From an uncultured Clostridia bacterium (GTDB taxonomy: Bacteria; Bacillota; Clostridia; Christensenellales; UBA1242): a stretch of 64,000 nucleotides of DNA. The number at the start of each line of letters is the position of its first letter. The first letter of the stretch is position 1. Under the pieces are notes generated by a model. It was not told the DNA's origin, made no database searches, and saw nothing but the letters and a program-made list of their open reading frames with translations. This document shows positions 19,501-57,807 of this stretch, piece after piece. The stretch lies in NCBI GenBank assembly GCA_934777435.1, contig CAKVNK010000002.1, forward strand, positions 195,889 to 259,888. Direction: 5' to 3'. The position numbers and the translations under genes were made by a program.

Positions 19501-22500
19501 CATCGATTTTGGCAATTCTGATTCAACAGGCAAAAGTATTGCTTACTATGAAACAAGGTCTTATAATGCCGTTGTTGCAAATGCTAACAAAACATCTACC
19601 GATGTTTATTGGAATTATTACAAAATACCTAAATCAGACTATGTTTACAATTCAATAAATCATTCATACACAGTTACACTTTCGAAGGTTGAAGTTGATA
19701 ATGTGTATTGCATTTATATAAAAGATGTTTCTAATATAAATTTAGCACAAAATGGTAATTATACCATTTCTGAAACTGCTGAAAATTTAAATTTTAGTTC
19801 GAATTATGATAATATATATAAAACAAGGTATAGAACATTTCTTCATTTTGGAAATAGTTATGGTTATTCCACTTTGCCAAGTTATGTCAAAGGCGTAACT
19901 ACAGATCGTTATGCAAACATGTTTAGAAATGCTGTTAACACATATAAAAATCATATAGACGAAACGCAAGTTTCAGTTGAAACATTACGAAAGTTCCATT
20001 TACGCACTGTGTACAATGGGGCGAATGGAAGATATATTTGGGTGGCAAATAACCACACTATTGGAGATTTAGCATTTGCCAAAGATTACTATGAAAACAT
20101 AGCATTCAGGTTTAATGGTGTTAATGGTGCATATGCATTAACAACAAGTAAATACAGAGGAACATTTGTTCCACATTCAGACTATTTAATTAATGACCCC
20201 GCAGGTTTACAGTTTAAAACACAAAACGTTAAGTCAATAAGAAACACAAGTTGGACAATAGATATGGACGTAAACCACATAGGTGAAGAACCAACACTTG
20301 TGCCAATATATTTCAGAGAGTCGTACAAACTCAATTTGAATTACTATTACAAAGCAGGTACATATGAATACAATGGCTTTGTTGGATACTTAAATGTAGT
20401 AGTTACCGACAACGCTGCAGAAACAAGTTCAACAGGTGGCAATGGTAAATATTTGGTATACTACAACAGCAATAAGTCAAAATGTGTAATATACAAGTAT
20501 GACACAACATCAGATACAAAACGATATAAATTAAGTTTATGGTTTGATGAATTAACAGAAGATAAAATAGTAGATTGTATAGTAATCTACCGTGGTTGTG
20601 ATGTAACCATAGAAGCCATAGACCAAAGCAAAGTATTAGATTTGAACAAAGAAAACAGTTTCTATGACCCAATGATAGGTTACAGATACACTGGAGAATT
20701 GAGTGGTAGAGTAGCGGGTGTTGAAAAGACATCATTAGATAGTTATGGATACACAATTCCATTTAACACAAACACAGAAGTAGGACAAGTAACCACAATT
20801 AATGGCTTATTTAGTGACGCGGAGCCAGTATATGTAAATGCTGGTGACTATATTAGTTTAAGCATATACTTTGCCCCTATTAACTATGACACAACCATAG
20901 CGATGACAGATACAAATGCTGGTCAGGTGCAGATTTCACGATTGGGCAACAGCAATGTCATAACAACAAGCCAACCATACAAGTTAACAAACTTGCAAAG
21001 GGGTAGTGTTGCCGAGTTCTTCTATTACGCCTATGCAGGATATGGGTTAATGGAAGAAGATTTCACCATATCCAATAATTGGATAAAGAGTTTAGATATG
21101 TCTGGTAACGAGATAGCAAGGCAAACAGATAGAGAGAAGCAGACATACAAACTTAATTTAAGTGGTGCGTGGTTAAGGATATACTTATACAAAGATGGTA
21201 CATATTCAGTAGATGCATCACAAACATTAGGTCAGATAGATGTAAACATAAAGATGTTAGAGTTTGATATTTACACTAGCATCATAGATAAATATACAAC
21301 TAAACTTGAAACTCAATGGGCAGAGAAAGGTTGGAAATTAGATAATCAATTTATATGGGAATTGCCAGTAACAGAGTTAAAAACTTATGACGGAAATACC
21401 ATATATGCATATTACCATAACGACAAGTATTATGCATTGTTAAGCAGTTGGGCAAACCAACCAAGAACACCAACCACAAGAACATTGTTGGCAGATAATT
21501 ACACTTTCTTGCTTGAAGATAAGCCAGTTAATACATACAACATAACCACAGATATATTGTTTAATATGGTGTTAACAGAACGTGGCATCATAGTACCTGA
21601 AGAAAACAGGTATATGTACTTCAATCTTGAAGTGGTAGAGATGTACAAATTGAGTTTGGCAATAGTTGTAGGTGTTAATGATACCAACTGTTCAACCAGA
21701 ACATTAACAATATCTAACACAGATAACAATACAGTAACACTTACAGCAGGCAGTGAATATATTGCATCACAAACCATGCCATATATCTACACATACCGTT
21801 GGTTGGAAAATGACTTAACGGCAACATTTGTAGATAAATATTATACAGGTGTAACATTTACAGCAACAGAAGGTGATGTTGTTCAACCAATAACTTCACC
21901 AATGCAAGCGACATCGGATATGGTTATATATGCAAACTTCACACCAGTTCAGTTGCTGGTAGATTTAACCTTTAATTACAATGGAACAAAGGTAATACAA
22001 AATCCAACAACAAGTGCGGTAGACAAAGCCAAGATAGCGGAATACTTTACATCATGGCAGATGACAACAAAATCTGGAGTGCAAAACAACATAACCAACA
22101 GCACAGAGACAGGTAAAGTTGTAGCAAATGATACTATTGCGATGGCATATACATTGAAGCCAATATACAATGTAACCATAAAGGTAAACAACAGTGCATC
22201 AAGGTTAATCTACGATACAACCACAGGCAGTTACAAAGCAGTGGTTTCAACAGACGACTATATTTCAGGTAAAGTGGAGATAGTTGTAGATATTGTGGAT
22301 AAGAAGCAAGGACAACTTAACTTAAAAGTAGATAAAGACAATTCAAATGGAGCAGTGTTCCATACCCAAGAAGCAGAGACAATGGAAACATTTGCGGACT
22401 TGTGGATAAATGGGATAAACTATGGTAAAACAGGTTCATTTATGTCTGGTTACACAGTAAAGATTAAGTTAAATTCAATACCAACAGGTTACAAATATGT

Positions 22501-23743
22501 AGGTGTAAAGAAAGACCATGGCAATGTAGATACAAGATACAAATTGACAGGTAACGAGATAGAGATAACAGACGGCAAAGTGCCAGAAGGTATGTTAGAA
22601 GATGACTATGTAACATTGATAGCTGGCACATACTATGCAGTGTTTGAGAAAGAGTTAATTTCAACCGAGATGATATTAACAGCAAGAAACAAAAACAACT
22701 ATGGCTACCAAACAAATGGCTTGCAAGCGGTATGGAGAAATGGGCATTTGGCGGTGTTAAAAGAAAGTTCAGTGCAAGACACATTAAACTTCTACCGTAA
22801 TGCAGAATTAGCAGATGAAGAACTTGTAACGTATTACTATATGGATAAGACAGGTAGACATGACATCACTGGCACAAGTTTAACCATAACCAGTGAAATG
22901 CTGGAAAATATCCAACCATTGGCAAACGGAAGCAAATTGTTAAAGATATATGTAGAGAGTAACTTAAAGTTTAACTTAACATTTACAGTAGAAGAAGAAA
23001 GTTTGCAATACTTGGAAAAGATAGAAGTGGATGGAAAGACATTAAGTTCAGTAAACAACATATTCAGCACAGCGTATAGCCTAGAGAACACCAGTGTAAC
23101 ATACAGCATAAGCAGTAAGTTACCGGATAAATACAAGATAACCATAACAGGAGATGCAACAGGCACAGGCAGTGAGATAAGCCAAAGCATAACACTTGTG
23201 ACCAACCGAAAGATAACAGTAAAGATAACCAAGAATAGTTATGGGTTAACGGTAGACGAGAAGTTGTATGCGGACATAGTTGAATTGAACAACAATGCAC
23301 CTGAAACATTAACAGGGGACGATGTGCTTAATCCAAGCATAAACGGAGATAAGGTTGGCTATGTATACAACAGTAATCCAACATATGTAGACATAGTGAC
23401 AGTTGCAGGTGAAGGTAATGATAAGAAGCAATTAACATCGATAAGGTTTGAAGACGAGAAGTTAAGTTTTGAATTAGCCTTAGACGCAACTAGCGAAGCG
23501 TACATTACAGGCATAACTGCCAAGAAAGCGGACGGCGGAGAGATAAGCAAAGCGGCCATAAAGATAAGCCCAGATAAAGAAAACGCAAATATGTATAGCG
23601 TAAGCATAACCGTTGACGGGGAAACGTTTACCTTTACTTTAGAAAAGTCTAGCACTGGCTCAATATTGTTTGGTTTTGTGGGGTTAGGAAATTCAAAATT
23701 AACTTTAACCTACACTGTTGTAAAACTGATATCCATAAGTTAG
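16592..23743 (+). CDS. Giant secreted/surface protein (2383 aa) with Listeria-Bacteroides (InlB B-repeat)-like modules
   Basis: GGGG RBS. N-terminal signal/anchor (STIIFAIVALFVSSIFAFGLNFIQVGYAAAP). Modules of the G-Y-x-F-x-G-W ... A-x-W-E-K type (YRFKGWRVEK...CVALWEK). No LPXTG or other recognisable C-terminal anchor. Confidence 0.85.
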   Translation: MVFERSKNRIELSTIIFAIVALFVSSIFAFGLNFIQVGYAAAPSSRYTFYFTCQETEYWSGDAVMETMYTYFDDDIELAYSPNDYPDYIKKDENGAQYRFKGWRVEKLQSYYGTGDPLTAKVASVVDECASDRFELYQPTGPIGDLAYYRCVALWEKRYFNEEIIASDDESWTPLGTEGKGIVYSVFDYDNSYNGDYIDFGGDREFRINMFATGTDMCDYESIKFFDSVYYDKYTQYYDDYEKMCEVFEESMYEEDPEVIGVIPGSAAKSIWYMERPDPVINNNKSTPRLRRFCDWKRLNFYIRFQPNSGSIQNLCVGSFWIPALPRSMYNKLPGITTNSPFVTSSTAYNDLDVKCQMFSIYNYEFKTMMEMQYSDGVNDPAYFIQFLGFNVEGGADVGSSTISVYADYREKDWRKESGDVFLKYNLVFNQPNNVSTGKNAGAFWYKKLGTTGDFTKVQADDGSPCALTMAIYDKTKIDITYSNNETVFTFYMSSYTYSRRTIKYSIADGYRFDSLNRNGNQDLSPQNNLTSQSFVTDKDEEINLNYQLIYYNLSIGYTTIGLSNNTKAYLASSEYRPNNDKTYQDVTRLKNSCLSVEGYELPTASNTTALTDIFGEDYATLVSNQKVFSGWLLDLTALERLGYTYDENTNTATRSYNYKTSPIVQQVDEPTWVKFEAGKASTTLNGERRICLKLTKIYGFGNFVFGLSNVASAGFIWGDNSKHISSESFVLPIVPNWSSQYNLSISNPIRTVNFVSSKDSVSGVLKNTSSTIYSTVNFKVTSNSNIDFVFPKGAAFCSYANITSYSEIYDENGNYGLFNYGHDIIGYQISFKYGGMTYYPYYYKPANAIIKSWKALYLKNGNYYYTTYGSSGTATDVQCNVSTINNQIYMSIKDFSYTLFGKTSTADMQSLIRCFASWTQGDFVLRDTTFVVTPVWDNAKINITESMPNQFGSASKIDTFTIKFEDAYNIDFGNSDSTGKSIAYYETRSYNAVVANANKTSTDVYWNYYKIPKSDYVYNSINHSYTVTLSKVEVDNVYCIYIKDVSNINLAQNGNYTISETAENLNFSSNYDNIYKTRYRTFLHFGNSYGYSTLPSYVKGVTTDRYANMFRNAVNTYKNHIDETQVSVETLRKFHLRTVYNGANGRYIWVANNHTIGDLAFAKDYYENIAFRFNGVNGAYALTTSKYRGTFVPHSDYLINDPAGLQFKTQNVKSIRNTSWTIDMDVNHIGEEPTLVPIYFRESYKLNLNYYYKAGTYEYNGFVGYLNVVVTDNAAETSSTGGNGKYLVYYNSNKSKCVIYKYDTTSDTKRYKLSLWFDELTEDKIVDCIVIYRGCDVTIEAIDQSKVLDLNKENSFYDPMIGYRYTGELSGRVAGVEKTSLDSYGYTIPFNTNTEVGQVTTINGLFSDAEPVYVNAGDYISLSIYFAPINYDTTIAMTDTNAGQVQISRLGNSNVITTSQPYKLTNLQRGSVAEFFYYAYAGYGLMEEDFTISNNWIKSLDMSGNEIARQTDREKQTYKLNLSGAWLRIYLYKDGTYSVDASQTLGQIDVNIKMLEFDIYTSIIDKYTTKLETQWAEKGWKLDNQFIWELPVTELKTYDGNTIYAYYHNDKYYALLSSWANQPRTPTTRTLLADNYTFLLEDKPVNTYNITTDILFNMVLTERGIIVPEENRYMYFNLEVVEMYKLSLAIVVGVNDTNCSTRTLTISNTDNNTVTLTAGSEYIASQTMPYIYTYRWLENDLTATFVDKYYTGVTFTATEGDVVQPITSPMQATSDMVIYANFTPVQLLVDLTFNYNGTKVIQNPTTSAVDKAKIAEYFTSWQMTTKSGVQNNITNSTETGKVVANDTIAMAYTLKPIYNVTIKVNNSASRLIYDTTTGSYKAVVSTDDYISGKVEIVVDIVDKKQGQLNLKVDKDNSNGAVFHTQEAETMETFADLWINGINYGKTGSFMSGYTVKIKLNSIPTGYKYVGVKKDHGNVDTRYKLTGNEIEITDGKVPEGMLEDDYVTLIAGTYYAVFEKELISTEMILTARNKNNYGYQTNGLQAVWRNGHLAVLKESSVQDTLNFYRNAELADEELVTYYYMDKTGRHDITGTSLTITSEMLENIQPLANGSKLLKIYVESNLKFNLTFTVEEESLQYLEKIEVDGKTLSSVNNIFSTAYSLENTSVTYSISSKLPDKYKITITGDATGTGSEISQSITLVTNRKITVKITKNSYGLTVDEKLYADIVELNNNAPETLTGDDVLNPSINGDKVGYVYNSNPTYVDIVTVAGEGNDKKQLTSIRFEDEKLSFELALDATSEAYITGITAKKADGGEISKAAIKISPDKENANMYSVSITVDGETFTFTLEKSSTGSILFGFVGLGNSKLTLTYTVVKLISIS
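19953..23476 (+). repeat. 3.5-kb direct repeat, copy 1 (inside giant gene 1)
   Basis: Appears identical to 27203-30726 (offset 7250). Encoded protein and all antisense pseudo-ORFs are identical. Identity begins at atatagacgaaacg and ends at gttttgaatta. Confidence 0.85.
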
Positions 23744-23828
23744 GCTTAAATGTTTGAGTATATGTATCATGTTTTTAAAACATAAATCTAAAAAAGATTC
23801 AGACAAAGTAAATTAAAAGAATAGAAAA

Positions 23829-24006: not shown

Positions 24007-27000
24007 ATGATTTATCAAAAAAACAAATCTAAATTACGTGTTTCAACAATTCTGCTTGCAGTTATTGTGCTTTTTGTAGCTTCTCTTTGTACTTTTGGCT
24101 TTAATGTGTTGCAAAATAGTGATGCTGCCGCCGTGTCATGGCAAATAAATTATATATTCCATTTGGGATCTGCTCCATATTGGTATGGTAATGAGATAGA
24201 GACAATGTCCACTTCAAGGATAACAATGATTGATGGCCCTTATGCATTTTCACCAAATGATGCTAACAATAAATCAAAAATTGGCAAGGGATACTTATTT
24301 AAGGGGTGGTCAGCTACAGAAGGGTCAAATAGGGTTGATGCACAAGATGGATTTAAATTAAACCACCCAACCTCAGCAAAAGTGTTAACTTTACACTATT
24401 ATGCTGTGTGGGAAAAAATTGAAAAATTTGATAGTGATGATTCTGTTGAAATATCAACAAAAAGCATCAAAATCACATATAGTGATAAGAGTGAGGATTA
24501 TGGAGGCAATAGAGAAGTTGTTGTAACACTCTCTGGTAAAGTGGAAAACGACTCTACTACCGATAATCGCTTAAAGTTTTATAAAAACACTCTTGGATGG
24601 AGCATAGATCAAACAGCGGGTAGCTCTGGTTCAACTTGGTATCTTGCTCCAAAAGTTGTTGATGGCACACTTTACAACAATGGTTTGCCAGTGCTTAGAA
24701 GCTTTACGTCTTGGACAACTCTTAGGTTTGCAATTAGGTATACCCATATTGATAGCCAGGTTTACACTGTTAATGTTGCATCTGTTGATGTGCCTTCTTT
24801 GAATTCGGATTTAACCAATGGTATAACCAATTATTTGGCTGGTAAATCAAATAGCAATTCGGTTGTGGTTTATGGTAAAAAATTTTCAGTGGCTAAAGCT
24901 ATTGATGCTGGCGGATTGAATGCCAAAATAAACAATTATATAAAGAAAAATTTTACTTATACATATGAATATGGAACCATATACGTCAATTTTGTAGGAA
25001 TAAACGACACAAAAAATGATCAGATCTTCACAAAATATGATTTAATGTTTAAAGCACCAATAAATATATCAACAAATGTAAACAAGGGGGCTTTTTGGTA
25101 TTATGGTGCAAGCACTGCTTCATTGGCCGCTTCAAAATCAGCAAATGGTACTGCTTCAGATTTGAAATATAAGGTATATGCTGACACTAATATAACTTAC
25201 AATAATAGCACAGCAAATAATAGATTTGAATTTAATACGGTAACTAGAGAAAATGGTCAAACTGTAAGTAAAAAGATATATGTTGTATACCGCATCCAAG
25301 ATGGTTATTCGTGTGAAAATATTGTATCAAACACACAAAATTACTTATATAGATATCCTACAACTAATTTGTCATCGAAAACTTGGACTATTTCTGCTAA
25401 TGAAACGATAACATCTGAATATAGCTTGATGTATTATAGTTTGACGGTTGGTTATACAGTGCAAGGTAGTTCGGTTAATGTTGCTTCTCAAGACGAAAGT
25501 GGAACTGTGAAAATTGTTAAATCCACATCTTATCAACCTAATGGTGGTAAAACATCTTACCAAGATGTAAGTTACACATATGACAATTCACAAAGCATAT
25601 TTTCAGTTGAGGGCTATGAATTGCCAACAACAGCGGCTGATTTGCAATCAATATTTGGTGGCGACTATGACAGATTATTGGGTACTAATGGTGGCGGAAC
25701 AAAACGAACATTTAATGGCTGGTTACTTGATGTTACTTCTTTGGAGGCGTTGGGTTATCAACTTGACAATAATTTATCAGGCAATGGCACTGTTTACTAT
25801 AGAAAATCATCACAATGGGTTAAATTTGACGTCGGAAATAAAATCACAACATTAAATGGATCAAGATCTATATATTTATCTTTAACAAAAGTATATGGAT
25901 ATGGAGATTTCTTATTTGGTCAGAATTCCAATATTAACAATGGTTATTGTTGGGGAACAAATAACAACAAAGGTTTTGAACCAGCATCATTTATTATGCC
26001 GATTGTTCCAAACTGGTCTTCAGAATATAACTTAAGTGTGTCAAATCCAAAAAGTTCTGTTGTTGTAGATAACGCAAACACAACAAAAACAATATCAGGT
26101 GTTTTGCTTGGCTCATTAAATGGTGTTTATGATGGTTGTACATTTAAAGTGACAAGTAATACAAATATTGACTTTGTTTACTCCAAAGGAACAGCCTTTT
26201 ATCAATCGGATAATATCAAGTCATCAAGTTTATATAATACAGCAGGTCAATATGGTTTGTTTAATTATGGTCACGATATTATAGGCTATCAAATAACATT
26301 TAAATATGGTGGAAAGACTTTTTATCCATATTATTGTAAAGTAGCAGGGGAGTATTCAAAACAATGGAGACCATTATACTATAACAGTTCAGACGGAAAT
26401 TATTATTCTGACACATATAACGCTGATGGTTCAATTAGCTCAAAAGTTTATCCCGTATCACAAATTAACAATCAAATTTATATGTCGCTAAATGACTTTA
26501 AAAAAGTTTTTTGGAATACAGAAACTGATGTAAGCACAAACATGAGGGAATTGATATATTGCTTTGCAAGTTGGACTCAAGGTGACTTTGTGTTACAAGG
26601 AACAACGTTCGTAGTTTCCCCTGTTTGGCGTAAAGCGGATATTTGTATAACAGAAGCAACGGCAAATCAATTTGGCTCTGCTTCAAAAATAGACACAGTT
26701 ACAACAAGTATTGGAAATCAATATAATATTCCATTTGGTGATTCTGCTTCTGCAGGTAAAAGCATTGCATACTACAAAACAAAAAGCAATAAAATTGTTG
26801 TGGCAAATCAAAATGGATATAGTGGAAATGTGACATGGAATTACTACAATCATTCAATATTTGATTATGATTATAACTTAACAAACAATCAATATATAAT
26901 AGAACTTAAAAAGTTTGAAGTTGATAATGTGTATCGTGTTTATTTTAAAGATGTATCTAATTTAAATCTTATTGAAGATTGTGAGTATATTGCCGTTAAT

Positions 27001-30000
27001 GATAGTGATGATGGTAATGAATCTATCTTTGGTGGGAATAGAAATGATGCTTACTCTGTTACATACAGAACATATTGGAATTTTGCCGCATCGTCTGATT
27101 GTTATGGCAGTTTGCCAAACTATGCTATCACAACGACACAAGTGCCAGCGACAGATTACTTTGCATCGTTGTTCAAGGTACAAGTAGATAGGTATGAAAG
27201 TAATATAGACGAAACGCAAGTTTCAGTTGAAACATTACGAAAGTTCCATTTACGCACTGTGTACAATGGGGCGAATGGAAGATATATTTGGGTGGCAAAT
27301 AACCACACTATTGGAGATTTAGCATTTGCCAAAGATTACTATGAAAACATAGCATTCAGGTTTAATGGTGTTAATGGTGCATATGCATTAACAACAAGTA
27401 AATACAGAGGAACATTTGTTCCACATTCAGACTATTTAATTAATGACCCCGCAGGTTTACAGTTTAAAACACAAAACGTTAAGTCAATAAGAAACACAAG
27501 TTGGACAATAGATATGGACGTAAACCACATAGGTGAAGAACCAACACTTGTGCCAATATATTTCAGAGAGTCGTACAAACTCAATTTGAATTACTATTAC
27601 AAAGCAGGTACATATGAATACAATGGCTTTGTTGGATACTTAAATGTAGTAGTTACCGACAACGCTGCAGAAACAAGTTCAACAGGTGGCAATGGTAAAT
27701 ATTTGGTATACTACAACAGCAATAAGTCAAAATGTGTAATATACAAGTATGACACAACATCAGATACAAAACGATATAAATTAAGTTTATGGTTTGATGA
27801 ATTAACAGAAGATAAAATAGTAGATTGTATAGTAATCTACCGTGGTTGTGATGTAACCATAGAAGCCATAGACCAAAGCAAAGTATTAGATTTGAACAAA
27901 GAAAACAGTTTCTATGACCCAATGATAGGTTACAGATACACTGGAGAATTGAGTGGTAGAGTAGCGGGTGTTGAAAAGACATCATTAGATAGTTATGGAT
28001 ACACAATTCCATTTAACACAAACACAGAAGTAGGACAAGTAACCACAATTAATGGCTTATTTAGTGACGCGGAGCCAGTATATGTAAATGCTGGTGACTA
28101 TATTAGTTTAAGCATATACTTTGCCCCTATTAACTATGACACAACCATAGCGATGACAGATACAAATGCTGGTCAGGTGCAGATTTCACGATTGGGCAAC
28201 AGCAATGTCATAACAACAAGCCAACCATACAAGTTAACAAACTTGCAAAGGGGTAGTGTTGCCGAGTTCTTCTATTACGCCTATGCAGGATATGGGTTAA
28301 TGGAAGAAGATTTCACCATATCCAATAATTGGATAAAGAGTTTAGATATGTCTGGTAACGAGATAGCAAGGCAAACAGATAGAGAGAAGCAGACATACAA
28401 ACTTAATTTAAGTGGTGCGTGGTTAAGGATATACTTATACAAAGATGGTACATATTCAGTAGATGCATCACAAACATTAGGTCAGATAGATGTAAACATA
28501 AAGATGTTAGAGTTTGATATTTACACTAGCATCATAGATAAATATACAACTAAACTTGAAACTCAATGGGCAGAGAAAGGTTGGAAATTAGATAATCAAT
28601 TTATATGGGAATTGCCAGTAACAGAGTTAAAAACTTATGACGGAAATACCATATATGCATATTACCATAACGACAAGTATTATGCATTGTTAAGCAGTTG
28701 GGCAAACCAACCAAGAACACCAACCACAAGAACATTGTTGGCAGATAATTACACTTTCTTGCTTGAAGATAAGCCAGTTAATACATACAACATAACCACA
28801 GATATATTGTTTAATATGGTGTTAACAGAACGTGGCATCATAGTACCTGAAGAAAACAGGTATATGTACTTCAATCTTGAAGTGGTAGAGATGTACAAAT
28901 TGAGTTTGGCAATAGTTGTAGGTGTTAATGATACCAACTGTTCAACCAGAACATTAACAATATCTAACACAGATAACAATACAGTAACACTTACAGCAGG
29001 CAGTGAATATATTGCATCACAAACCATGCCATATATCTACACATACCGTTGGTTGGAAAATGACTTAACGGCAACATTTGTAGATAAATATTATACAGGT
29101 GTAACATTTACAGCAACAGAAGGTGATGTTGTTCAACCAATAACTTCACCAATGCAAGCGACATCGGATATGGTTATATATGCAAACTTCACACCAGTTC
29201 AGTTGCTGGTAGATTTAACCTTTAATTACAATGGAACAAAGGTAATACAAAATCCAACAACAAGTGCGGTAGACAAAGCCAAGATAGCGGAATACTTTAC
29301 ATCATGGCAGATGACAACAAAATCTGGAGTGCAAAACAACATAACCAACAGCACAGAGACAGGTAAAGTTGTAGCAAATGATACTATTGCGATGGCATAT
29401 ACATTGAAGCCAATATACAATGTAACCATAAAGGTAAACAACAGTGCATCAAGGTTAATCTACGATACAACCACAGGCAGTTACAAAGCAGTGGTTTCAA
29501 CAGACGACTATATTTCAGGTAAAGTGGAGATAGTTGTAGATATTGTGGATAAGAAGCAAGGACAACTTAACTTAAAAGTAGATAAAGACAATTCAAATGG
29601 AGCAGTGTTCCATACCCAAGAAGCAGAGACAATGGAAACATTTGCGGACTTGTGGATAAATGGGATAAACTATGGTAAAACAGGTTCATTTATGTCTGGT
29701 TACACAGTAAAGATTAAGTTAAATTCAATACCAACAGGTTACAAATATGTAGGTGTAAAGAAAGACCATGGCAATGTAGATACAAGATACAAATTGACAG
29801 GTAACGAGATAGAGATAACAGACGGCAAAGTGCCAGAAGGTATGTTAGAAGATGACTATGTAACATTGATAGCTGGCACATACTATGCAGTGTTTGAGAA
29901 AGAGTTAATTTCAACCGAGATGATATTAACAGCAAGAAACAAAAACAACTATGGCTACCAAACAAATGGCTTGCAAGCGGTATGGAGAAATGGGCATTTG

Positions 30001-30993
30001 GCGGTGTTAAAAGAAAGTTCAGTGCAAGACACATTAAACTTCTACCGTAATGCAGAATTAGCAGATGAAGAACTTGTAACGTATTACTATATGGATAAGA
30101 CAGGTAGACATGACATCACTGGCACAAGTTTAACCATAACCAGTGAAATGCTGGAAAATATCCAACCATTGGCAAACGGAAGCAAATTGTTAAAGATATA
30201 TGTAGAGAGTAACTTAAAGTTTAACTTAACATTTACAGTAGAAGAAGAAAGTTTGCAATACTTGGAAAAGATAGAAGTGGATGGAAAGACATTAAGTTCA
30301 GTAAACAACATATTCAGCACAGCGTATAGCCTAGAGAACACCAGTGTAACATACAGCATAAGCAGTAAGTTACCGGATAAATACAAGATAACCATAACAG
30401 GAGATGCAACAGGCACAGGCAGTGAGATAAGCCAAAGCATAACACTTGTGACCAACCGAAAGATAACAGTAAAGATAACCAAGAATAGTTATGGGTTAAC
30501 GGTAGACGAGAAGTTGTATGCGGACATAGTTGAATTGAACAACAATGCACCTGAAACATTAACAGGGGACGATGTGCTTAATCCAAGCATAAACGGAGAT
30601 AAGGTTGGCTATGTATACAACAGTAATCCAACATATGTAGACATAGTGACAGTTGCAGGTGAAGGTAATGATAAGAAGCAATTAACATCGATAAGGTTTG
30701 AAGACGAGAAGTTAAGTTTTGAATTAACCTTAGATATATCTAGCGAAGCATATATCTCAAGCATAACGGCCAAGAAAGCGGACGGCGGAGAGATAAGCAA
30801 AGCGGACATAAAGATAAGCCCAGATAAAGAAAACGTAAATATGTATAGCGTAAGCATAACCGTTGACGGGGAAACTTATACTTACACATTTAAAAAGTTG
30901 GATACTGGTGCTATCCAATTTGGATTTATTGGTTTAAGCAATGCAAGGTTAACATTGACTTACACAATCTATAAACTGATATCTATAAGTTAG
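24007..30993 (+). CDS. Giant secreted/surface protein paralogue (2328 aa)
   Basis: GGGG RBS. Signal/anchor STILLAVIVLFVASLCTFGFNVLQNSDAAAV. The N-terminal ~1070 aa have diverged from gene 1 with conserved islands (FSVEGYELPT, LFNYGHDIIGYQI, CFASWTQGDFVL). The central 1174 aa are identical. The last ~89 aa are about 80% identical. Confidence 0.85.
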   Translation: MIYQKNKSKLRVSTILLAVIVLFVASLCTFGFNVLQNSDAAAVSWQINYIFHLGSAPYWYGNEIETMSTSRITMIDGPYAFSPNDANNKSKIGKGYLFKGWSATEGSNRVDAQDGFKLNHPTSAKVLTLHYYAVWEKIEKFDSDDSVEISTKSIKITYSDKSEDYGGNREVVVTLSGKVENDSTTDNRLKFYKNTLGWSIDQTAGSSGSTWYLAPKVVDGTLYNNGLPVLRSFTSWTTLRFAIRYTHIDSQVYTVNVASVDVPSLNSDLTNGITNYLAGKSNSNSVVVYGKKFSVAKAIDAGGLNAKINNYIKKNFTYTYEYGTIYVNFVGINDTKNDQIFTKYDLMFKAPINISTNVNKGAFWYYGASTASLAASKSANGTASDLKYKVYADTNITYNNSTANNRFEFNTVTRENGQTVSKKIYVVYRIQDGYSCENIVSNTQNYLYRYPTTNLSSKTWTISANETITSEYSLMYYSLTVGYTVQGSSVNVASQDESGTVKIVKSTSYQPNGGKTSYQDVSYTYDNSQSIFSVEGYELPTTAADLQSIFGGDYDRLLGTNGGGTKRTFNGWLLDVTSLEALGYQLDNNLSGNGTVYYRKSSQWVKFDVGNKITTLNGSRSIYLSLTKVYGYGDFLFGQNSNINNGYCWGTNNNKGFEPASFIMPIVPNWSSEYNLSVSNPKSSVVVDNANTTKTISGVLLGSLNGVYDGCTFKVTSNTNIDFVYSKGTAFYQSDNIKSSSLYNTAGQYGLFNYGHDIIGYQITFKYGGKTFYPYYCKVAGEYSKQWRPLYYNSSDGNYYSDTYNADGSISSKVYPVSQINNQIYMSLNDFKKVFWNTETDVSTNMRELIYCFASWTQGDFVLQGTTFVVSPVWRKADICITEATANQFGSASKIDTVTTSIGNQYNIPFGDSASAGKSIAYYKTKSNKIVVANQNGYSGNVTWNYYNHSIFDYDYNLTNNQYIIELKKFEVDNVYRVYFKDVSNLNLIEDCEYIAVNDSDDGNESIFGGNRNDAYSVTYRTYWNFAASSDCYGSLPNYAITTTQVPATDYFASLFKVQVDRYESNIDETQVSVETLRKFHLRTVYNGANGRYIWVANNHTIGDLAFAKDYYENIAFRFNGVNGAYALTTSKYRGTFVPHSDYLINDPAGLQFKTQNVKSIRNTSWTIDMDVNHIGEEPTLVPIYFRESYKLNLNYYYKAGTYEYNGFVGYLNVVVTDNAAETSSTGGNGKYLVYYNSNKSKCVIYKYDTTSDTKRYKLSLWFDELTEDKIVDCIVIYRGCDVTIEAIDQSKVLDLNKENSFYDPMIGYRYTGELSGRVAGVEKTSLDSYGYTIPFNTNTEVGQVTTINGLFSDAEPVYVNAGDYISLSIYFAPINYDTTIAMTDTNAGQVQISRLGNSNVITTSQPYKLTNLQRGSVAEFFYYAYAGYGLMEEDFTISNNWIKSLDMSGNEIARQTDREKQTYKLNLSGAWLRIYLYKDGTYSVDASQTLGQIDVNIKMLEFDIYTSIIDKYTTKLETQWAEKGWKLDNQFIWELPVTELKTYDGNTIYAYYHNDKYYALLSSWANQPRTPTTRTLLADNYTFLLEDKPVNTYNITTDILFNMVLTERGIIVPEENRYMYFNLEVVEMYKLSLAIVVGVNDTNCSTRTLTISNTDNNTVTLTAGSEYIASQTMPYIYTYRWLENDLTATFVDKYYTGVTFTATEGDVVQPITSPMQATSDMVIYANFTPVQLLVDLTFNYNGTKVIQNPTTSAVDKAKIAEYFTSWQMTTKSGVQNNITNSTETGKVVANDTIAMAYTLKPIYNVTIKVNNSASRLIYDTTTGSYKAVVSTDDYISGKVEIVVDIVDKKQGQLNLKVDKDNSNGAVFHTQEAETMETFADLWINGINYGKTGSFMSGYTVKIKLNSIPTGYKYVGVKKDHGNVDTRYKLTGNEIEITDGKVPEGMLEDDYVTLIAGTYYAVFEKELISTEMILTARNKNNYGYQTNGLQAVWRNGHLAVLKESSVQDTLNFYRNAELADEELVTYYYMDKTGRHDITGTSLTITSEMLENIQPLANGSKLLKIYVESNLKFNLTFTVEEESLQYLEKIEVDGKTLSSVNNIFSTAYSLENTSVTYSISSKLPDKYKITITGDATGTGSEISQSITLVTNRKITVKITKNSYGLTVDEKLYADIVELNNNAPETLTGDDVLNPSINGDKVGYVYNSNPTYVDIVTVAGEGNDKKQLTSIRFEDEKLSFELTLDISSEAYISSITAKKADGGEISKADIKISPDKENVNMYSVSITVDGETYTYTFKKLDTGAIQFGFIGLSNARLTLTYTIYKLISIS
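27203..30726 (+). repeat. 3.5-kb direct repeat, copy 2 (inside giant gene 2)
   Basis: See copy 1 (19953-23476). Confidence 0.85.
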
Positions 30994-31013
30994 GCAAAAC
31001 AAACAAAATAAAA

Positions 31014-31283: not shown

Positions 31284-31310
31284 TTGACTATCATTTTTTT
31301 TTGGTATAAG
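31284..31310 (+). promoter_or_regulatory. Putative promoter of the TasA-like expression site
   Basis: TTGACT at 31284 and an extended -10 (TGgTATAAG) at 31302-31310. Two operator-like repeats (taaactgcYaaWaaat) lie upstream at about 31174 and 31238. Confidence 0.4.
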
Positions 31311-31316
31311 ATTGAA

Positions 31317-31789
31317 GTGTAAAGTATGTGATGTCGATTAATCATACTTTTGAGCAGAGGACAATTTATAATGTTTACATTAATAAATTGGCTTTTGCGA
31401 AAAAGTTGTTTAATATGTTAAGTGAACGTAAGTGAACGCAACATATTAGGCAAGTTTATGCTTATTCATTTAAGCAAAAGGCAAACTTAATGTGGCAACA
31501 CATTAGGATTGTTGGGGGTGAACCCCTACAAGTAAATTTGCAAATTTGTTTGTAGTGATACAAACTTTCGGCACTTGAATTGTACACACCAGGTGCTGAA
31601 AAGCAAAATGCTTTCGCGACATCGCAAAGGCATTTAGGTTCCTTTGGTATCAGCCAAAAGGGCAGTTTGGCAAACTAAAAATGCTAAAACGTTGAATTAT
31701 TGCCTTAGTCGGAAAAGTGTAATGGTTTGACGTACGCTTTGGTAAAACAAAGCAAAACTTATTTAAAAAATTTAAAGGGGAAAATAAAA
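31317..31789 (+). promoter_or_regulatory. Long (~470 nt) hairpin-rich 5' leader or candidate structured RNA
   Basis: No ORF of 60 aa or more. At least 8 stem-loops, several with GNRA loops (taatgtg-GCAA-cacatta, gtttgta-GTGA-tacaaac). Mutually exclusive pairings around ccaaaagg (cctttgg/ccaaaagg versus gccaaa/tttggc). Confidence 0.4.
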
Positions 31790-32431
31790 ATGACAAAAAT
31801 GAAATCTAAAAAGATGTCAAAGTCAACATTTGCAATCATTATAATGGGAATTATTATGGTCGCTATGCTCGCTTTCGGCGGCACTTTCGCGTACTTTACT
31901 GCTAGTGCAAAAGCTGATAGCACAAAAGAATTAAAAACAGGTTATGTAAAATTGTCAGCCAACGGTGCTTTAGCAAGCGTTACAGCAACAAATATTATGC
32001 CTGGTGAAACTATTCTTGCAGAAAATGCTATTAAACTTACAGTTGATACAACTGAAACTAAAGGTAATTATGTTGCAATTAAATTTGTTATAACAGCCAA
32101 AGATTCTTCTGGTGCTGCTATTACAGATTTATCAAAAGTTGGTTTAAACCTTACAACTGCACTTGGTGCAAATTGGATTGCTAGTGGTACTGATAACATT
32201 TATCTTTATGGCACTGGTGATGCTGCAACTGTAGTTAAATCAGGTGAATTAAATGTAAATGCTGCTGCTTTAAAATTTGATGCAACAGATAACTGGACTC
32301 AAGGAGGAACAAGTTCAGACAACAAATTAATGGAAGCAACAATCACAATTTCAATGGAAGCACACTCAATTCAATCAACTGGTGTTGATGCTGCAACAGC
32401 TAAAACACAACTTGTAGGTTTGTTTGCTTAA
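31790..32431 (+). CDS. TasA/camelysin-family secreted protein with SipW-type signal peptide (expressed copy A)
   Basis: GGGG RBS upstream of ATG 31790. MTKMKSKKMSKSTFAIIIMGIIMVAMLAFGGTFAYFTA matches the SipW-dependent signal-peptide pattern (GGTFAYF-T/S). A terminator follows. Confidence 0.8.
   Translation: MTKMKSKKMSKSTFAIIIMGIIMVAMLAFGGTFAYFTASAKADSTKELKTGYVKLSANGALASVTATNIMPGETILAENAIKLTVDTTETKGNYVAIKFVITAKDSSGAAITDLSKVGLNLTTALGANWIASGTDNIYLYGTGDAATVVKSGELNVNAAALKFDATDNWTQGGTSSDNKLMEATITISMEAHSIQSTGVDAATAKTQLVGLFA
31839..31904 (+). repeat. Inverted repeat, left arm (66 bp, inside the signal-peptide coding region)
   Basis: ttataatgggaattattatggtcgctatgctcgctttcggcggcactttcgcgtactttactgcta is the exact reverse complement of 33296-33361. 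Confidence 0.95.
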
Positions 32432-32449
32432 TTACAATCAAATTAAAAA

Positions 32450-32471
32450 ACACGCATTAGCGTGTTTTTTT
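32450..32471 (+). terminator. Terminator of cassette A
   Basis: acacgc-atta-gcgtgt followed by T7. It is the reverse complement of the hairpin at 32736-32751. Confidence 0.75.
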
Positions 32472-32728
32472 CATATTTATTGGGGGGGGATTTTCAATAA
32501 TACCTATATATATTATATATTAGAACAGCAAAACAACTTTTGCTGTTCTTTATATTAATATATGTATATGGTTGATTTTTCACCCAAAGTTTTTTTAAAC
32601 AAAGTTGTTCAATATTAATACGTTCATTTTAATTAATATATTTTAATCTCTGTATTTATGCTTGTTTAAGTTTAACAAGATTTAATCTCAACTCGCTTTC
32701 TAACAAACCAAATTTCAATTTTTATGCA

Positions 32729-32752
32729 CAAAAAAACACGCTAATGCGTGTT
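32729..32752 (-). terminator. Terminator of cassette B
   Basis: Read on the minus strand: acacgc-atta-gcgtgt followed by a T-run. Confidence 0.7.
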
Positions 32753-32759
32753 TTTTTTA

Positions 32760-33356
32760 TTATTTATTGTCTATTGTAGCGGCTGCATAAGCTCCAGCAA
32801 CATCTGTGCCGAAACCTTCATATTGAGCTGCAGATGAATCAATAGTTACTTTAATTGTTGCATCCATTAATGAACCTTTTAATGCTTCAGTACTTACACT
32901 ATAACCATCAAAAGTAATGCTTGAACAAACATCTTTCGGTGTTGACGCTTCAGCACCTTCAATAACTGCATAGTAAACATCTGTTTGATCTGGTACAAGT
33001 TTCCAATCCGCAGCAACTGTTGGTGTTAATTTGTATTCGCCTTCTGCTTTTGGTTCTGCTGTAACCTTTTTCAATACTGCTGTATTATAGCCTTCACCTG
33101 TAGCTTTTGTAATGTCTACAGAGAATTTAACAAATACATATGTTTTAACATTTGAATTTGATGTGATAGTAACTTTGTTTTCATCACCAACAAGTAATTC
33201 TTGTCCTGGAACTACTTTTGTTGTCAAAGTGAAAGTGCTGTTTGCACCTAATTGAACTCTACCAGTTTGAACTTCTTTACTTTGTGCTGTTGTAGTAGCA
33301 GTAAAGTACGCGAAAGTGCCGCCGAAAGCGAGCATAGCGACCATAATAATTCCCAT
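32760..33356 (-). CDS. TasA/camelysin-family cassette B, 5'-truncated (no n-region or RBS); probable silent copy
   Basis: The ORF starts inside the inverted repeat at MGIIMVAMLAFGGTFAYFTA. An in-frame TGA lies 6 codons upstream and the nearest SD-like GGTGA is 15 nt away. The mature region (TTTAQSKEVQTGRVQLGANS...) is paralogous to copy A but diverged. Confidence 0.65.
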   Translation of the reverse strand: MGIIMVAMLAFGGTFAYFTATTTAQSKEVQTGRVQLGANSTFTLTTKVVPGQELLVGDENKVTITSNSNVKTYVFVKFSVDITKATGEGYNTAVLKKVTAEPKAEGEYKLTPTVAADWKLVPDQTDVYYAVIEGAEASTPKDVCSSITFDGYSVSTEALKGSLMDATIKVTIDSSAAQYEGFGTDVAGAYAAATIDNK

Positions 33357-33361
33357 TATAA
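33296..33361 (-). repeat. Inverted repeat, right arm (66 bp)
   Basis: Exact reverse complement of 31839-31904. Identity breaks on both flanks. Confidence 0.95.
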
Positions 33362-33432
33362 CGCGGTTAATTCACCTTTTTGCTAATTTGCTAATCATAG
33401 ATTACGCAAATATGAGCCTTTCAGGTGATTAA

Positions 33433-33768
33433 CCGCTTGCTATCAAGGGCGGAAACAATCTTTCCCCCTTGATGAATCCCCTTTGACTAAATAGGGCTAT
33501 TGAAGTGTGAGAGCCAATCAGTGTAAGGACAAGTGTGTTCGTGGCGTTTATTAAGAGACAAACCAATTTTAACTTTGTTAAAATTCTTTTTCCCTTAATG
33601 AATCCCTTTTGGTTAAAGCGGATTATGAAGTGTGCTTCGAAGTCGGTGCGTGGAAGTCTATTGGGTGGCCGCCCGCTTGCTATCAAGGGTGGAAACAATC
33701 TTTCCCCCTTGATGAATCCCCTTTGACTAAATAGGACTATTGAAGTGTGAAAGCAAATCAGTGTAAGG
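33433..33768. repeat. Triplicated structured repeat (two ~96-bp copies about 96% identical, plus a degenerate middle copy)
   Basis: Copy 33433-33528 and copy 33673-33768 differ at 4 positions. A degenerate copy lies at about 33581-33655. Each full copy contains the hairpin tcaaggg-c-ggaaa-caatc-tttcc-cccttga. Confidence 0.8.
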
Positions 33769-33846: not shown

Positions 33847-33929
33847 TTGTATATTATAAAATATACAAATATGTAATTGTATATTATAAAATATACAAAT
33901 ATGTAATTGTAGATTGAAAAATATACAAA
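33847..33929. repeat. 30-bp tandem repeat (2.8 copies), each unit containing a 10-4-10 palindrome
   Basis: Unit ttgtatattataaaatatacaaatatgtaa at 33847 and 33877, with a degenerate copy at 33907. Palindrome is tttgtatatt-ataa-aatatacaaa. Confidence 0.85.
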
Positions 33930-34032: not shown

Positions 34033-35043
34033 TTAAACTTCAATTATTTTTAGGTCGTGGGCGTCTTGATATACTATGTGATAACCGTCACTGAGTGGGT
34101 CTTCTGGGTCTAATGGTAGCCACTGGTGGTGTGTGCCTAATTCTTCAGGAACTGGGGCGTTATATGCGGTTGGTACGGCATAACATATATATTCAGGCTG
34201 GTTATCCTTATAAATTGCACCAAGGCAGTAAGTGTTGCTTCCTTCGGATATTGTTACAAAACGGCTGTTTTCGATTCTGCTGTTAAGTTCTTCGCACTCT
34301 GGAAAGGTTTTAAATATATAATCAAACTGTGGAATTAGGCTTTCTAATATAGTTGGTGTTTTGCTTGTGCTTGCTGGTTCGCTGTCAGGTTTAGTCTGTT
34401 TTTCTGCCAGTATATGGTTAGATTGTTGTTCTGATTGTTTAGGTAAATTATTTGTAGCAATGTTATCCGCATTGTTTTGTTGTGTGGGTTGGCTTTGTTG
34501 CGATTGTTGAGTGTAAAAGTATTCCTTGTACTTACAGCCGATACAAGGGTTAACGTTGTTTGCATTATCGCATTGATTTTGACATGGTTGTTGGCTGTTG
34601 GTTTGCTGTTGCTGACTTGCGTTGATTGGATTGTTGCTTTGAGTGGCTGTTTCGCGTGTTGGCGTGATTTTGTTAGGACTATAACAGTTGTTTAAGTTGT
34701 TGGTGATAACTGATGTGTCGTCAAAATAATAACCGCCGTATGTCCCGCCGGCTAAAAGTGGGGTGTTGTTATTTAAAGTGTCCACAACCGCACAGTAAAA
34801 ATCTGCGTTAATATCAAAATCGCCAACCAAAGAACTTATGTATGCTCCGTCTTTAAACAACATATTGCCAGCAAAAACTTGGTTGTTGTGATAAACGCCT
34901 AATTTTGCGTTTGCGTCCAGCGGGGCAAATGAATACAGACGAAGTTTGGTTGTTAATAAATCGTTTTCTTGTGTTAGGGTTAAAATTGCTCTGCCTGATT
35001 TGTTGTTGGTTTGTGATTGTAAAATCATTGTTTTGCTTTTCAT
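34033..35043 (-). CDS. Hypothetical protein with Q/N-rich central linker
   Basis: Long ORF. The first ATG at 35043 has no SD, so the start is uncertain (the TTG at 35058 is an alternative). Central region is rich in Q/N. No family recognised. Confidence 0.55.
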   Translation of the reverse strand: MKSKTMILQSQTNNKSGRAILTLTQENDLLTTKLRLYSFAPLDANAKLGVYHNNQVFAGNMLFKDGAYISSLVGDFDINADFYCAVVDTLNNNTPLLAGGTYGGYYFDDTSVITNNLNNCYSPNKITPTRETATQSNNPINASQQQQTNSQQPCQNQCDNANNVNPCIGCKYKEYFYTQQSQQSQPTQQNNADNIATNNLPKQSEQQSNHILAEKQTKPDSEPASTSKTPTILESLIPQFDYIFKTFPECEELNSRIENSRFVTISEGSNTYCLGAIYKDNQPEYICYAVPTAYNAPVPEELGTHHQWLPLDPEDPLSDGYHIVYQDAHDLKIIEV

Positions 35044-35298
35044 ATTTCTATTATACAAGGCAAAAGTAAAGCATATTACAAGAATTTTGGGCTTATGCTG
35101 ATATCTTTGTTAAAATTACACTTTTCTTGTTGAAATTTAAGGGCTAAATGACAGTTAGAATAATCTATTTTGTTTGACAACCTTGCGTTTGTATGCTAAT
35201 ATTATGTAAGCGTGAATTGGCGGTGAATTTTTGCACTGCTTATATTAAAATTTGCATATTAGTTTACGCTTTTGGCAATAATTTTGGGACGAGGATAT

Positions 35299-46741: not shown

Positions 46742-47446
46742 TTACACCATATGATAGTCAAACGCTTTAAATATAGCGTCCATAATAACATTGCATTTGC
46801 CTGCTAATGTGGTTTGACCATTGATACGTTCTTGCAATTCTGTTTGTTGGCTACCAATAACATAAGCACGGAAGGTGAGAGTGATGATTGTTGATTGATA
46901 AGCGTTGCCCATTTTTTCATGTAATTTAAGTTTGCCTTCTGGGATAACTTCAATTAAATTTTGAGTTTCTGGAATAGCGGTTGGAATCATCAAATATCTA
47001 AAATCAGTGTCATATGGGGTGTTGGTGTAACGGCCGTCAAACCAAGTTGTGTCCCCATGGATACCAATAAGTGGATTAGATAAGTCATAATCAGTGATTT
47101 CTTGATTGTAATTTGGGCTGTTAGGGTCATTATTAATAGCCTTAACAGTGTAAACAACAGCGATATAAACAGGTGTGTTTGAGGAGTTTGTTACAGTAAG
47201 TGCAGTGTTTGGAAGCACTTGACCTGGAATATAATAACTGTTTGTGTTCAAAATTTCACTTGAACCGCTTGAACCTGAACCTGCGTTCATTTCAATTTTA
47301 AGGTTTGCCATTTTAACAATACCTGAAATTTTGGAACTTGTTGTGCTGTAATAGGCATAAACACCACCAAAAACACAAGTTAACAACAGCAAGATTGCCA
47401 AAACTATAATTGTGATTGTTTGCCCTGATAATTTCTTTTTTGTCAC
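46742..47446 (-). CDS. TasA/camelysin-family secreted protein with SipW-type signal peptide (third paralogue)
   Basis: GTG start with a GGGG RBS. MTKKKLSGQTITIIVLAILLLLTCVFGGVYAYYSTT fits the SipW-type pattern. Its signal-peptide DNA is not identical to the inverted repeat at 31839. Confidence 0.75.
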   Translation of the reverse strand: MTKKKLSGQTITIIVLAILLLLTCVFGGVYAYYSTTSSKISGIVKMANLKIEMNAGSGSSGSSEILNTNSYYIPGQVLPNTALTVTNSSNTPVYIAVVYTVKAINNDPNSPNYNQEITDYDLSNPLIGIHGDTTWFDGRYTNTPYDTDFRYLMIPTAIPETQNLIEVIPEGKLKLHEKMGNAYQSTIITLTFRAYVIGSQQTELQERINGQTTLAGKCNVIMDAIFKAFDYHMV

Positions 47447-47836: not shown

Positions 47837-48199
47837 TTAAACAAAATAGTCTGTAATAAAATCTTTGACAATTTTTATAAACTGACAGCAACTTGGTGGG
47901 CTGTCTTTTAGCCAGTAATGCGATAATTGTTGTTTTAAATCAGTATCCCATTTGACGTTGATTATATTGCGAATATCACGCTCTATGGTGCAATCATTTT
48001 TACAATATTTCTGGGCAATACGCGGGTAAATCTGCCTTGAAAAAGACTGTATCGTGGCATCATCCTGTATCATTTTTCTTAAAATTTCACTTAAATAATA
48101 GAACGCTATATAATTCGAGCCAATACCTAAATCTTTTAATCGTTTGTTGATTAAATGATTTTTTAAAATATGTTCAAAATAATCTGTTTCTTTACACAT
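47837..48199 (-). CDS. Stand-alone Spo0A C-terminal (DNA-binding) domain protein, no receiver domain
   Basis: Aligns to the B. subtilis Spo0A effector domain (LGIGSNYIAFYYLSEI..IYPRIAQKY..TIERDIRNIINVKW versus IGVPAHIKGYLYLREA..LYPDIAKKF..RVERAIRHAIEVAW). Start set at ATG 48199, preceded by GGAGG. The ORF-track start is 48211. Confidence 0.75.
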   Translation of the reverse strand: MCKETDYFEHILKNHLINKRLKDLGIGSNYIAFYYLSEILRKMIQDDATIQSFSRQIYPRIAQKYCKNDCTIERDIRNIINVKWDTDLKQQLSHYWLKDSPPSCCQFIKIVKDFITDYFV

Positions 48200-48346
48200 A
48201 CAGTCCTCCATTTAAGGGGTTTAAAAAAATTTTGTTAATCCGTTTTTGGATTAATCAAAAATACTAATTTAATAATATTGTGTTAAGCGGTTTTGACACG
48301 CTTATGGCCACATACTATCACTTTTTTAAAGGCTAGTCAAACAATT

Positions 48347-57526: not shown

Positions 57527-57537
57527 TCGATATCCTT

Positions 57538-57807
57538 TTATCTTTCGCTAAGCCTTTCAGCTTTAGAGTTTAAGTAAATTAAATTTCTACCATCTTCAAT
57601 AGCTATTGCCTTGTATCCGTTTTTTTCCATAAACTTTTCAGCACCGCGAAGAGTTTTATATTTTTTATATTCCAGATGATTATTTGCAAGATATTCAGTT
57701 TTACCTTTTTTTGTACAAACTTCAATGCCTGTCCTATTTATTGAATCCTGGTCGTTGCTGTGATAAATTTTATTGTTACGAGAGTAGTGAATATATGTTG
57801 TACTCAT
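57538..57807 (-). CDS. Hypothetical protein
   Basis: AAGGAG RBS. 89 aa. Confidence 0.5.
   Translation of the reverse strand: MSTTYIHYSRNNKIYHSNDQDSINRTGIEVCTKKGKTEYLANNHLEYKKYKTLRGAEKFMEKNGYKAIAIEDGRNLIYLNSKAERLSER

Follow-up and report, generated by a model that had tools for sequence, protein, structure and literature searches.

Two opposed genes in a 64-kb stretch of DNA from an uncultured Clostridia bacterium (hereafter the window), here called gene A and gene B, encode TasA-like proteins with SipW-type signal peptides and share a 66-bp repeat in inverted orientation, and we consider it probable that together they form a working cassette switch, driven by DNA inversion, that selects the major subunit of a secreted fibre. 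In the mechanism proposed here, a fixed expression site (31284-31838) carries a candidate promoter, a leader of ~470 nt, a Shine-Dalgarno (SD) sequence, the start codon and the basic n-region of the signal peptide, and the 66-bp repeat that follows codes for the hydrophobic core and cleavage region of the same signal peptide. An inverted, identical copy of the repeat precedes a second body, B, which is without promoter and start. Recombination between the two copies would invert 31905-33295, bring B in frame with the expression site and park A behind a dead stub. The expected outcome is a change in the displayed fibre variant, as in antigenic or receptor variation, and populations would presumably switch often and in both directions. 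An earlier reading of the bare nucleotide sequence (the sequence-only reading) had already proposed a single expression site and a silent cassette truncated at its 5′ end, exchanged by inversion at repeats that lie in the signal-peptide code, and this proposal is supported by the comparative data presented below, namely 18 related loci, selection on the silent bodies, the positions occupied by bodies in relatives, and a contig from another sample (L004).

Direct comparison of 31839-31904 with 33296-33361 showed the two arms to be exact reverse complements at 66/66 nt, as first reported. A repeat search extended the pair to 90 nt at 90% identity (31839-31928/33272-33361), which means that identity stops abruptly only on the outer side of the repeats and decays on the inner side into ordinary paralogue similarity; the original claim of a sharp break on both flanks of both arms thus held for the outer flanks but not for the inner ones. 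The segment predicted to invert (Table 1) is backed by inverted alignments of equivalent segments between related genomes. A candidate dyad-symmetric core of the repeat, a weak ATAAT-N7-ATTAT picked out by eye in the window only, was rejected, as it is not kept in other species.

Gene A (31790-32431, +, 213 aa) is complete, with the SD AAAGGGGAA at 31774-31782, 8 nt upstream of its ATG, the basic n-region MTKMKSKKMSKSTFAIII and a signal peptide, and both the ribosome-binding site and the n-region were read to the left of the repeat, where they had been placed before. Gene B (32760-33356, -, 198 aa) has an intact open reading frame (ORF) whose start lies within the repeat. The in-frame sequence upstream reads MISKLAKR*INRVIMGIIMV, with a TGA six codons before the ATG, and the sole SD-like element, AGGTGA, is 15 nt from the ATG, leaving gene B with no usable SD. 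Gene B is also without an n-region, whereas gene A has every signal. This reading of the upstream frame agrees with the earlier description of gene B as beginning in the repeat behind an in-frame TGA, with neither n-region nor normally spaced SD, and we infer that gene B is untranslated in its present position. An alternative genetic code in which TGA stands for Trp or Gly would make B full-length, but was excluded by the presence of translation table 11 ORFs of 2328 and 2383 aa, and further by the stops that are also present in the second stub family described below. The mutual reverse complementarity of the two terminators, to which attention had been drawn, is real (27/27) but trivial, since every cassette brings its own terminator; inversion between the terminator hairpins was also considered and set aside, as it would flip only a 258-nt spacer, without consequence.

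The SipW-cognate signal model TIGR04088 matched both A (24.7 bits) and B (26.7 bits; cut-off 19). Pfam Peptidase_M73 (PF12389) gave a marginal match to A (23.3 against a gathering threshold of 22.5) over residues 19-81 only, and B scored 18.0, below the cut-off. Protein identity between the mature parts of A and B is about 26-34%. An AlphaFold2 model of A based on 67 homologues (pLDDT 82, pTM 0.70) was compared with the PDB using Foldseek, where the sole match at E<=0.001 was the TasA fibre 8AUR_A (E 6.1e-4, prob 1.00, TMq 0.46, a modest TM-score), and 'TasA-superfamily fibre subunit' appears a reasonable label for A and B. There was no Peptidase_S24/S26 match among window ORFs of at least 120 aa, and the gene for a SipW-type signal peptidase may lie in another part of the genome. 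The window has one more, distant TasA-like paralogue of SipW type (VTKKKLSGQTITIIVLAILLLLTCVFGGVYAYYS...), the third, at 46742-47446 (-); it has neither repeat nor partner cassette, and ~400 bp away is the gene for a 124-aa protein (47837-48211, -) in which the C-terminal DNA-binding domain of Spo0A was recognised.

A genome scan with the family alignment recovered 44 loci, all from uncultured gut Clostridia ('Candidatus Onthoplasma', 'Christensenella sp.', 'Clostridia bacterium'; Onthoplasma is classed in Christensenellales by NCBI). Members of family UBA1242 are described as having genomes of <1 Mb with most biosynthesis missing and as predicted obligate symbionts or parasites, and two metagenome-assembled genomes among those scanned, KY236-132 and KA0021_177, originate from that study (PMC12306168). 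Multi-copy loci were identified via the FGGT[FY]AYF motif in six frames, which yielded 16 loci and later two more (L051 and L052), or 18 in all; repeat boundaries and exact lengths were measured in 16 of them. Exactly one full-length gene was present in each multi-copy locus (18/18), plus one or two truncated cassettes. The n-region MTKxKSKKMxKSTFAIII, accompanied by the SD AAAGGGGAA, occurs in a single copy per locus throughout, and the truncated copies start abruptly at ...IM(A/G)xxMVAMLAFGG after unrelated, usually stop-containing sequence. All truncated cassettes except one (20/21) are opposite in strand to the full gene. The exception, in L016 (order S1-> <-S2 <-FULL), has exactly the layout that outer-pair recombination would yield in a locus with three cassettes, of which L003 and L048 (Sa-> Sb-> <-FULL) are examples.

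Within the 16 measured loci the exact intra-locus repeat is 54-79 nt long and runs from -35/-33 nt of the FGG codon to +20..+38, and the repeats share one outer boundary, beginning at (T)TATAATGG. They are identical within a genome and carry many synonymous and some non-synonymous differences between species (GGGAATTATT, GGCGGTGGTT, GGTATCGTT, GGCAATCGCT, TCAATAGCG and others), so that, to judge from these alignments, the repeats evolve in concert while their outer boundary stays fixed. All copies in these 16 loci start with ATAATG, extended to ATAATGG in all but L048 (ATAATGT), with ATA as the Ile codon; several single-copy loci have ATC or ATT at this repeat-edge position. Full-length ORFs were retained in all truncated cassettes (21/21), at 171-210 codons after the motif. 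For orthologous bodies that are truncated in both genomes compared, dN/dS was 0.19 (window B versus the B-type body of L003) and 0.24 (L009 versus L025), values that indicate purifying selection on the silent cassettes and are not expected for dead genes.

When orthologous loci were compared, as the sequence-only reading had advised, its layout was found to recur in the 18 multi-copy loci and the same bodies were found in opposite positions in relatives. L003 is syntenic with the window (RsmF and the 255-aa, 476-aa and 341-aa families); the A-type body, expressed in the window, is truncated in L003 along with the B-type body, and a third type is expressed there. The flanks of L013 and L031 are collinear at 95.1% and 93.6% identity, and the 896-nt segment of repeat and body beside the expression site of L013 has its counterpart, inverted and 90.6% identical, beside the stub of L031. 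L051 and L052 share a flank that is 94.2% identical, and a 914-nt segment at the expression site in L051 is inverted, at 91.1%, at the stub in L052. Within each of these two pairs the same body thus occupies the expression site of one genome (L013, L051) and lies inverted behind the stub of the other (L031, L052), and together with the A-type body of the window and L003 this makes three pairs with a body in either position. B-type bodies, for their part, follow a complete expression site in some other species (P0002/L006, P0004). The stubs themselves are conserved chromosomal features carrying different bodies: SMISKLAKR*INRV is joined to differing bodies in the window (B-type), L030, L033 and L004, and a second stub, NIQMK*WAKWSL, is found in L005 (B-type), L013, L031, L032 and L052.

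The contig L004 places the A body on the silent side. The 90%-identity cluster of protein A includes P0123, a protein of 191 aa starting MVAML, and its contig (L004; ENA ERZ27263846, other sample, 638 nt) begins with GTGAATTAACCGCG, which corresponds to window 33375-33362 reversed, the outer flank of the B side (14 nt). After this flank come the 66-nt repeat and then the A body with its terminator, 97.3% identical to 31839-32462. Of the two inverted junctions for which a search had been recommended, the one joining B-side flank, repeat and A body is therefore seen in L004, and the reciprocal one, joining the A n-region to the B body, was absent from the protein collection and the JGI contigs searched. 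Processes other than inversion are also evident from the comparison of window and L033, in which flanks are 92-96% identical and the bodies unrelated, with a similar result for L030 and L032 in the flank comparison. Unrelated bodies between such similar flanks indicate that the bodies are hypervariable and probably also exchanged horizontally. Such cassette exchange would probably be anchored at one end by the conserved leader and signal and at the opposite end by the terminator.

Several results weigh against an active switch of this kind. The inverted positions are known across genomes and samples and not within one population. The pairs L013/L031 and L051/L052 have one body in common and a different partner cassette; more than one event consequently separates the members of each pair, and they are not simple single inversions. 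L004 is a short, probably low-coverage MEGAHIT contig with a 14-nt flank, and could be an assembly chimera across the 66-nt repeat. The reciprocal product (A n-region plus B body, 216 aa) was absent from a collection of 15 billion proteins by exact look-up, and the reciprocal chimera was also missing among the homologues of a chimeric query. Exact look-up in the same collection returned no truncated A forms either, P0123 having come from the 90% cluster of A. The B-expressed junction had 0 matches in JGI metagenome contigs, as did the silent stub, probably because the species is missing from that collection. Contig ends inside repeats (L015/L050, L051) were considered as a sign of mixed orientations and discarded as uninformative, given that ordinary repeat-induced or low-coverage breaks suffice to explain them. 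No integrase, resolvase, invertase or transposase was found in the 64-kb window by Pfam (every non-nested ORF of 120 aa or more) and NCBIfam (ORFs without a Pfam match), in agreement with the earlier statement that the window holds no recombinase gene. Clustering of the ORFs that neighbour the fetched loci likewise revealed no group of recombinases, annotation here covering the clusters also present in the window. The neighbour clusters represent housekeeping synteny (341-aa family, 33 loci; 476-aa lipoprotein, 32; 255-aa family, 30; RsmF, 29; MnmA and others). Finally, 66 bp is short for efficient RecA-dependent exchange.

The whole 66 nt is identical within each genome, even at sites that vary between species, which argues that homology-dependent exchange or gene conversion acts on the repeats; as a crossover at a fixed point cannot homogenise both sides of the crossover, RecA-type exchange of the kind known from Campylobacter fetus sap is slightly favoured. 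Such exchange is the foremost single candidate, at a little under an even chance, followed by an unlinked site-specific recombinase, with a locus that does not actively switch well behind. For the second of these, the switch would be catalysed in trans by a site-specific recombinase (tyrosine, Xer-like or serine) with a fixed core in the repeat, possibly the ATAATGG at its outer edge, and would resemble Ureaplasma MBA/XerC or the Bacteroides master invertase Mpi. Mpi and XerC are examples of inversion recombinases. The outer repeat boundary, which is the same in all species, would fit such an enzyme, as would the ATAATG at the repeat edge, invariant in multi-copy loci and with ATA where several single-copy loci have ATC or ATT; according to PMC9881135, moreover, enzymes of this type drive most known gene-altering inversions, some of them in trans. 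However, neither the window nor the conserved neighbours yielded such an enzyme, no sub-core of the repeat outside ATAATGG is kept between species, third-codon positions vary across most of its length with no long conserved core, and a fixed-point crossover would leave the within-genome identity of the whole 66 nt unexplained. A recombinase acting in trans is rated as a tentative possibility.

A locus without active switching appears unlikely. In that case A and B would be ordinary paralogues, with B decaying or weakly and independently expressed, the repeat would be kept by occasional gene conversion, and the other arrangements would reflect rare rearrangement and horizontal replacement. Such an explanation is compatible with the fact that heterogeneity within a population is not demonstrated, with the possibility that L004 is a chimera, and with the wholesale replacement of bodies between the window and L033, which indicates that non-inversion processes do operate. 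It is at odds with the truncated copies, however: all 21 of them, in 18 loci, are intact, those tested have dN/dS well below 1, unlike pseudogenes, 20 of the 21 are inverted, and the truncation point is the same in every species. In addition, the stubs examined are all without a recognisable n-region and most contain stop codons. That the repeat is an assembly or scaffolding artefact, such as a mis-join of two alleles, is conceivable for a metagenome-assembled source contig and yet highly improbable, as the identical arrangement, in the orientation of the window, is found in three contigs of up to 402 kb with both proteins (the window is 100% identical to ENA ERZ28613879 scaffold_47) and the arrangement recurs in about 18 independent assemblies from other species and different assemblers.

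Among known systems, the closest mechanistic analogue of the proposed switch is C. fetus sap, with one expression site, a conserved 5′ substrate and no linked invertase. In sap a single promoter serves promoterless homologues whose conserved 5′ coding region is the recombination substrate, inversion swaps the surface protein, no invertase is encoded in the locus, and the process is RecA-dependent. The two differ in that the conserved 5′ region spans hundreds of bp in sap and 66 bp here, and in that the sap genes are complete ORFs which share their own start, so that only the promoter moves, whereas here start and n-region are fixed and fusion takes place inside the signal peptide. The product is an S-layer in one and a TasA-like fibre in the other, and the hosts belong to different phyla. 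In architecture the closest analogues are Mycoplasma pulmonis vsa and Ureaplasma MBA. The vsa locus, from a host-dependent organism with a reduced genome, has an expression site with promoter, start and signal peptide and silent 5′-truncated genes that are activated by inversion at a repeat within the 5′ coding region. Ureaplasma MBA (see PMC3047005) likewise combines a host-dependent organism with a reduced genome, an expression site with promoter, start and 5′ end, silent 5′-truncated genes and inversion at a 5′ coding repeat. Recombination in vsa and MBA takes place at short specific sites (34 bp for vrs) through a tyrosine recombinase that is either dedicated or of Xer type, and hvsR is part of the locus, whereas none is linked here; the repeat described in this study (54-79 nt, with a sequence not kept across species) does not match a short site of the vsa type, and the targets are lipoproteins in vsa and MBA and SipW-type fibre subunits here. 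The R64 shufflon (pilV) and Hin/Gin/Cin/Min likewise join a constant N-terminal part to alternative C-terminal bodies by inversion, and the multi-cassette layouts of L003, L048 and L016 behave like the R64 shufflon. These systems have sites of 19-26 bp and an adjacent rci or serine invertase and are carried on plasmids or phages, in contrast to the present locus, which is chromosomal, set in housekeeping synteny and without an adjacent enzyme.

In Bacillus and Clostridium, the protein scaffold of biofilms consists mainly of TasA-like fibres, which have so far been viewed as stably encoded and transcriptionally regulated. Bacillus subtilis TasA and Clostridium perfringens BsaA have in common with the proteins described here a SipW-type signal, a weak Peptidase_M73 match and the fold match to 8AUR; their genes lie in operons of the tapA-sipW-tasA type and, to our knowledge and from the papers searched, are not phase-varied by inversion. 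The signature of gene-altering inversions given by Milman, Yelin & Kishony 2023 (PMC9881135), in which gene and pseudogene differ in size, face opposite ways and both overlap with inverted repeats, is shown by the present locus, where the inverted repeats lie inside two opposed homologous coding sequences, one complete and one 5′-truncated. Recombinases are the enriched neighbours in that survey and none is present here; the missing linked recombinase is unusual among gene-altering programmed inversions. TasA, camelysin and SipW are found neither in its main text nor among its enriched target families. No relevant paper on TasA, camelysin or SipW in connection with inversion, shufflons, invertons or phase variation was found among the top-ranked full-text matches, consistent with the sequence-only reading, whose author knew of no such description for the TasA superfamily. 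The lack of a prior report and the absence from PMC9881135 suggest a new target family and lineage within the known gene-altering programmed inversions.

If the switch operates as proposed, the TasA superfamily would be able to act as a variable surface antigen or adhesin, and strong diversifying pressure (phages, host immunity or partner-cell specificity) would act on an uncultured gut lineage with genomes of <1 Mb, predicted to be an obligate symbiont or parasite (PMC12306168). The locus would provide a PCR-testable marker of phase variation for organisms known only from metagenomes, would extend the systematic surveys of gene-altering inversions by a target family that they lack, and would be a natural case in which to ask whether programmed inversion can proceed on ~66 bp of homology with no dedicated invertase. 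More tentatively, and at less than an even chance for the picture as a whole, the loci could represent a family-wide chromosomal shufflon (UBA1242/'Ca. Onthoplasma', reduced-genome and probably partner-dependent organisms) that varies the major TasA-like fibre, with the signal-peptide code as recombination site, no linked invertase, RecA-type exchange over 66 bp and a hypervariable, horizontally exchanged pool of bodies. It would then correspond, in a Gram-positive lineage and on the basis of fibres, to the antigenic variation of mycoplasmas, and no programmed variation system would be known earlier for the TasA superfamily.

Table 1. Coordinates of the predicted switch and its parts in the window.
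Feature	Position	Strand	Remarks
Candidate sigma-70-type promoter	31284-31312	+	TTGACT-17-TAAGAT; 9/12 consensus match, weak
Long 5′ leader of expression site	31313-31789	+	Holds palindrome ACAAGTAAATTTGCAAATTTGTTTGT (31519-31562) and SD AAAGGGGAA
Fixed part of expression site	31790-31838	+	Start codon and basic n-region (MTKMKSKKMSKSTFAI plus first base of next codon); outside invertible segment
Left inverted repeat	31839-31904	+	66 nt; codes h-region, FGGTFAYFTA motif and presumed SipW cleavage region
Predicted invertible segment	31905-33295	.	1391 bp; both cassette bodies and both terminators; inferred from repeat positions
Cassette A body, mature TasA-like protein	31905-32431	+	At present fused to expression site
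Bidirectional terminator hairpin of cassette A	32445-32471	.	Terminator-like on both strands
Terminator hairpin of cassette B	32730-32756	.	27/27 reverse complement of 32445-32471; scores terminator-like
Cassette B body, mature TasA-like protein	32760-33295	-	Currently in silent position; intact ORF
Right inverted repeat	33296-33361	-	66 nt; 66/66 match to left arm
Silent-site stub, decayed 5′ end	33362-33398	-	Mini-ORF MISKLAKR-TGA at 33372-33398, then INRV; no functional start/SD for B

The promoter and the ~470-nt leader are putative, since the promoter is only a 9/12 match and a consensus scan found promoter-like 9/12 matches here to be no commoner than in shuffled sequence. The core of the leader palindrome, AAATTTGCAAATTT (31534-31547), and the SD AAAGGGGAA are kept in most of 17 aligned loci, and the remaining leader diverges; the palindrome at 31519-31562 is a candidate operator for some regulator. 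No Rfam family (gathering threshold and E<=1) indicated a riboswitch or other known RNA in the leader or stub region, the only matches being tmRNA elsewhere and terminator-like noise.

Directly upstream of the fibre locus, two giant ORFs lie in tandem (16592-23743 and 24007-30993, +), of 2383 and 2328 aa and with no Pfam domain. They share a 3.8-kb direct repeat (19943-23745 versus 27193-30995) whose 98.6% identity indicates recent duplication or gene conversion. Giant genes vary among relatives, with one each in L051 and L052 and none in L003. On the other side, between the stub and the 341-aa gene, are 96-nt direct repeats (33433-33528/33673-33768; 96% identical, 240 nt apart) with a degenerate copy at 33580-33626; each 96-nt repeat holds a G/C-rich hairpin (CAAGGGCGGAAAC...TTTCCCCCTTG), and there are no further copies in the window. 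These are followed at 33847-33929 by a perfect AT-rich palindrome, TTGTATAT-N6-ATATACAA, in three copies at 30-nt spacing, which could be a protein-binding site near the silent site. In the other stub family (L005, L013, L031, L032) a similar palindrome precedes the repeat by ~25 nt. The 341-aa protein itself (34033-35058, -) has no Pfam or NCBIfam match and consists of conserved N- and C-terminal domains joined by a Q/N-rich linker; its gene adjoins the fibre locus in 33 fetched loci and is transcribed towards the silent cassette.

Farther away, 57146-63999 (-) is a run of small ORFs on one strand, among them an assembly ATPase of Zot-like type (58660-59550), a protein of 303 aa with a Listeria-Bacteroides repeat and one of 680 aa without recognised domains, and could represent the integrated prophage of a filamentous (inovirus-like) phage. 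The genes for tmRNA (Rfam 126.9 bits; 5211-5564, -) and smpB (1482-1946, +) lie close together in the window and are ordinary housekeeping genes.

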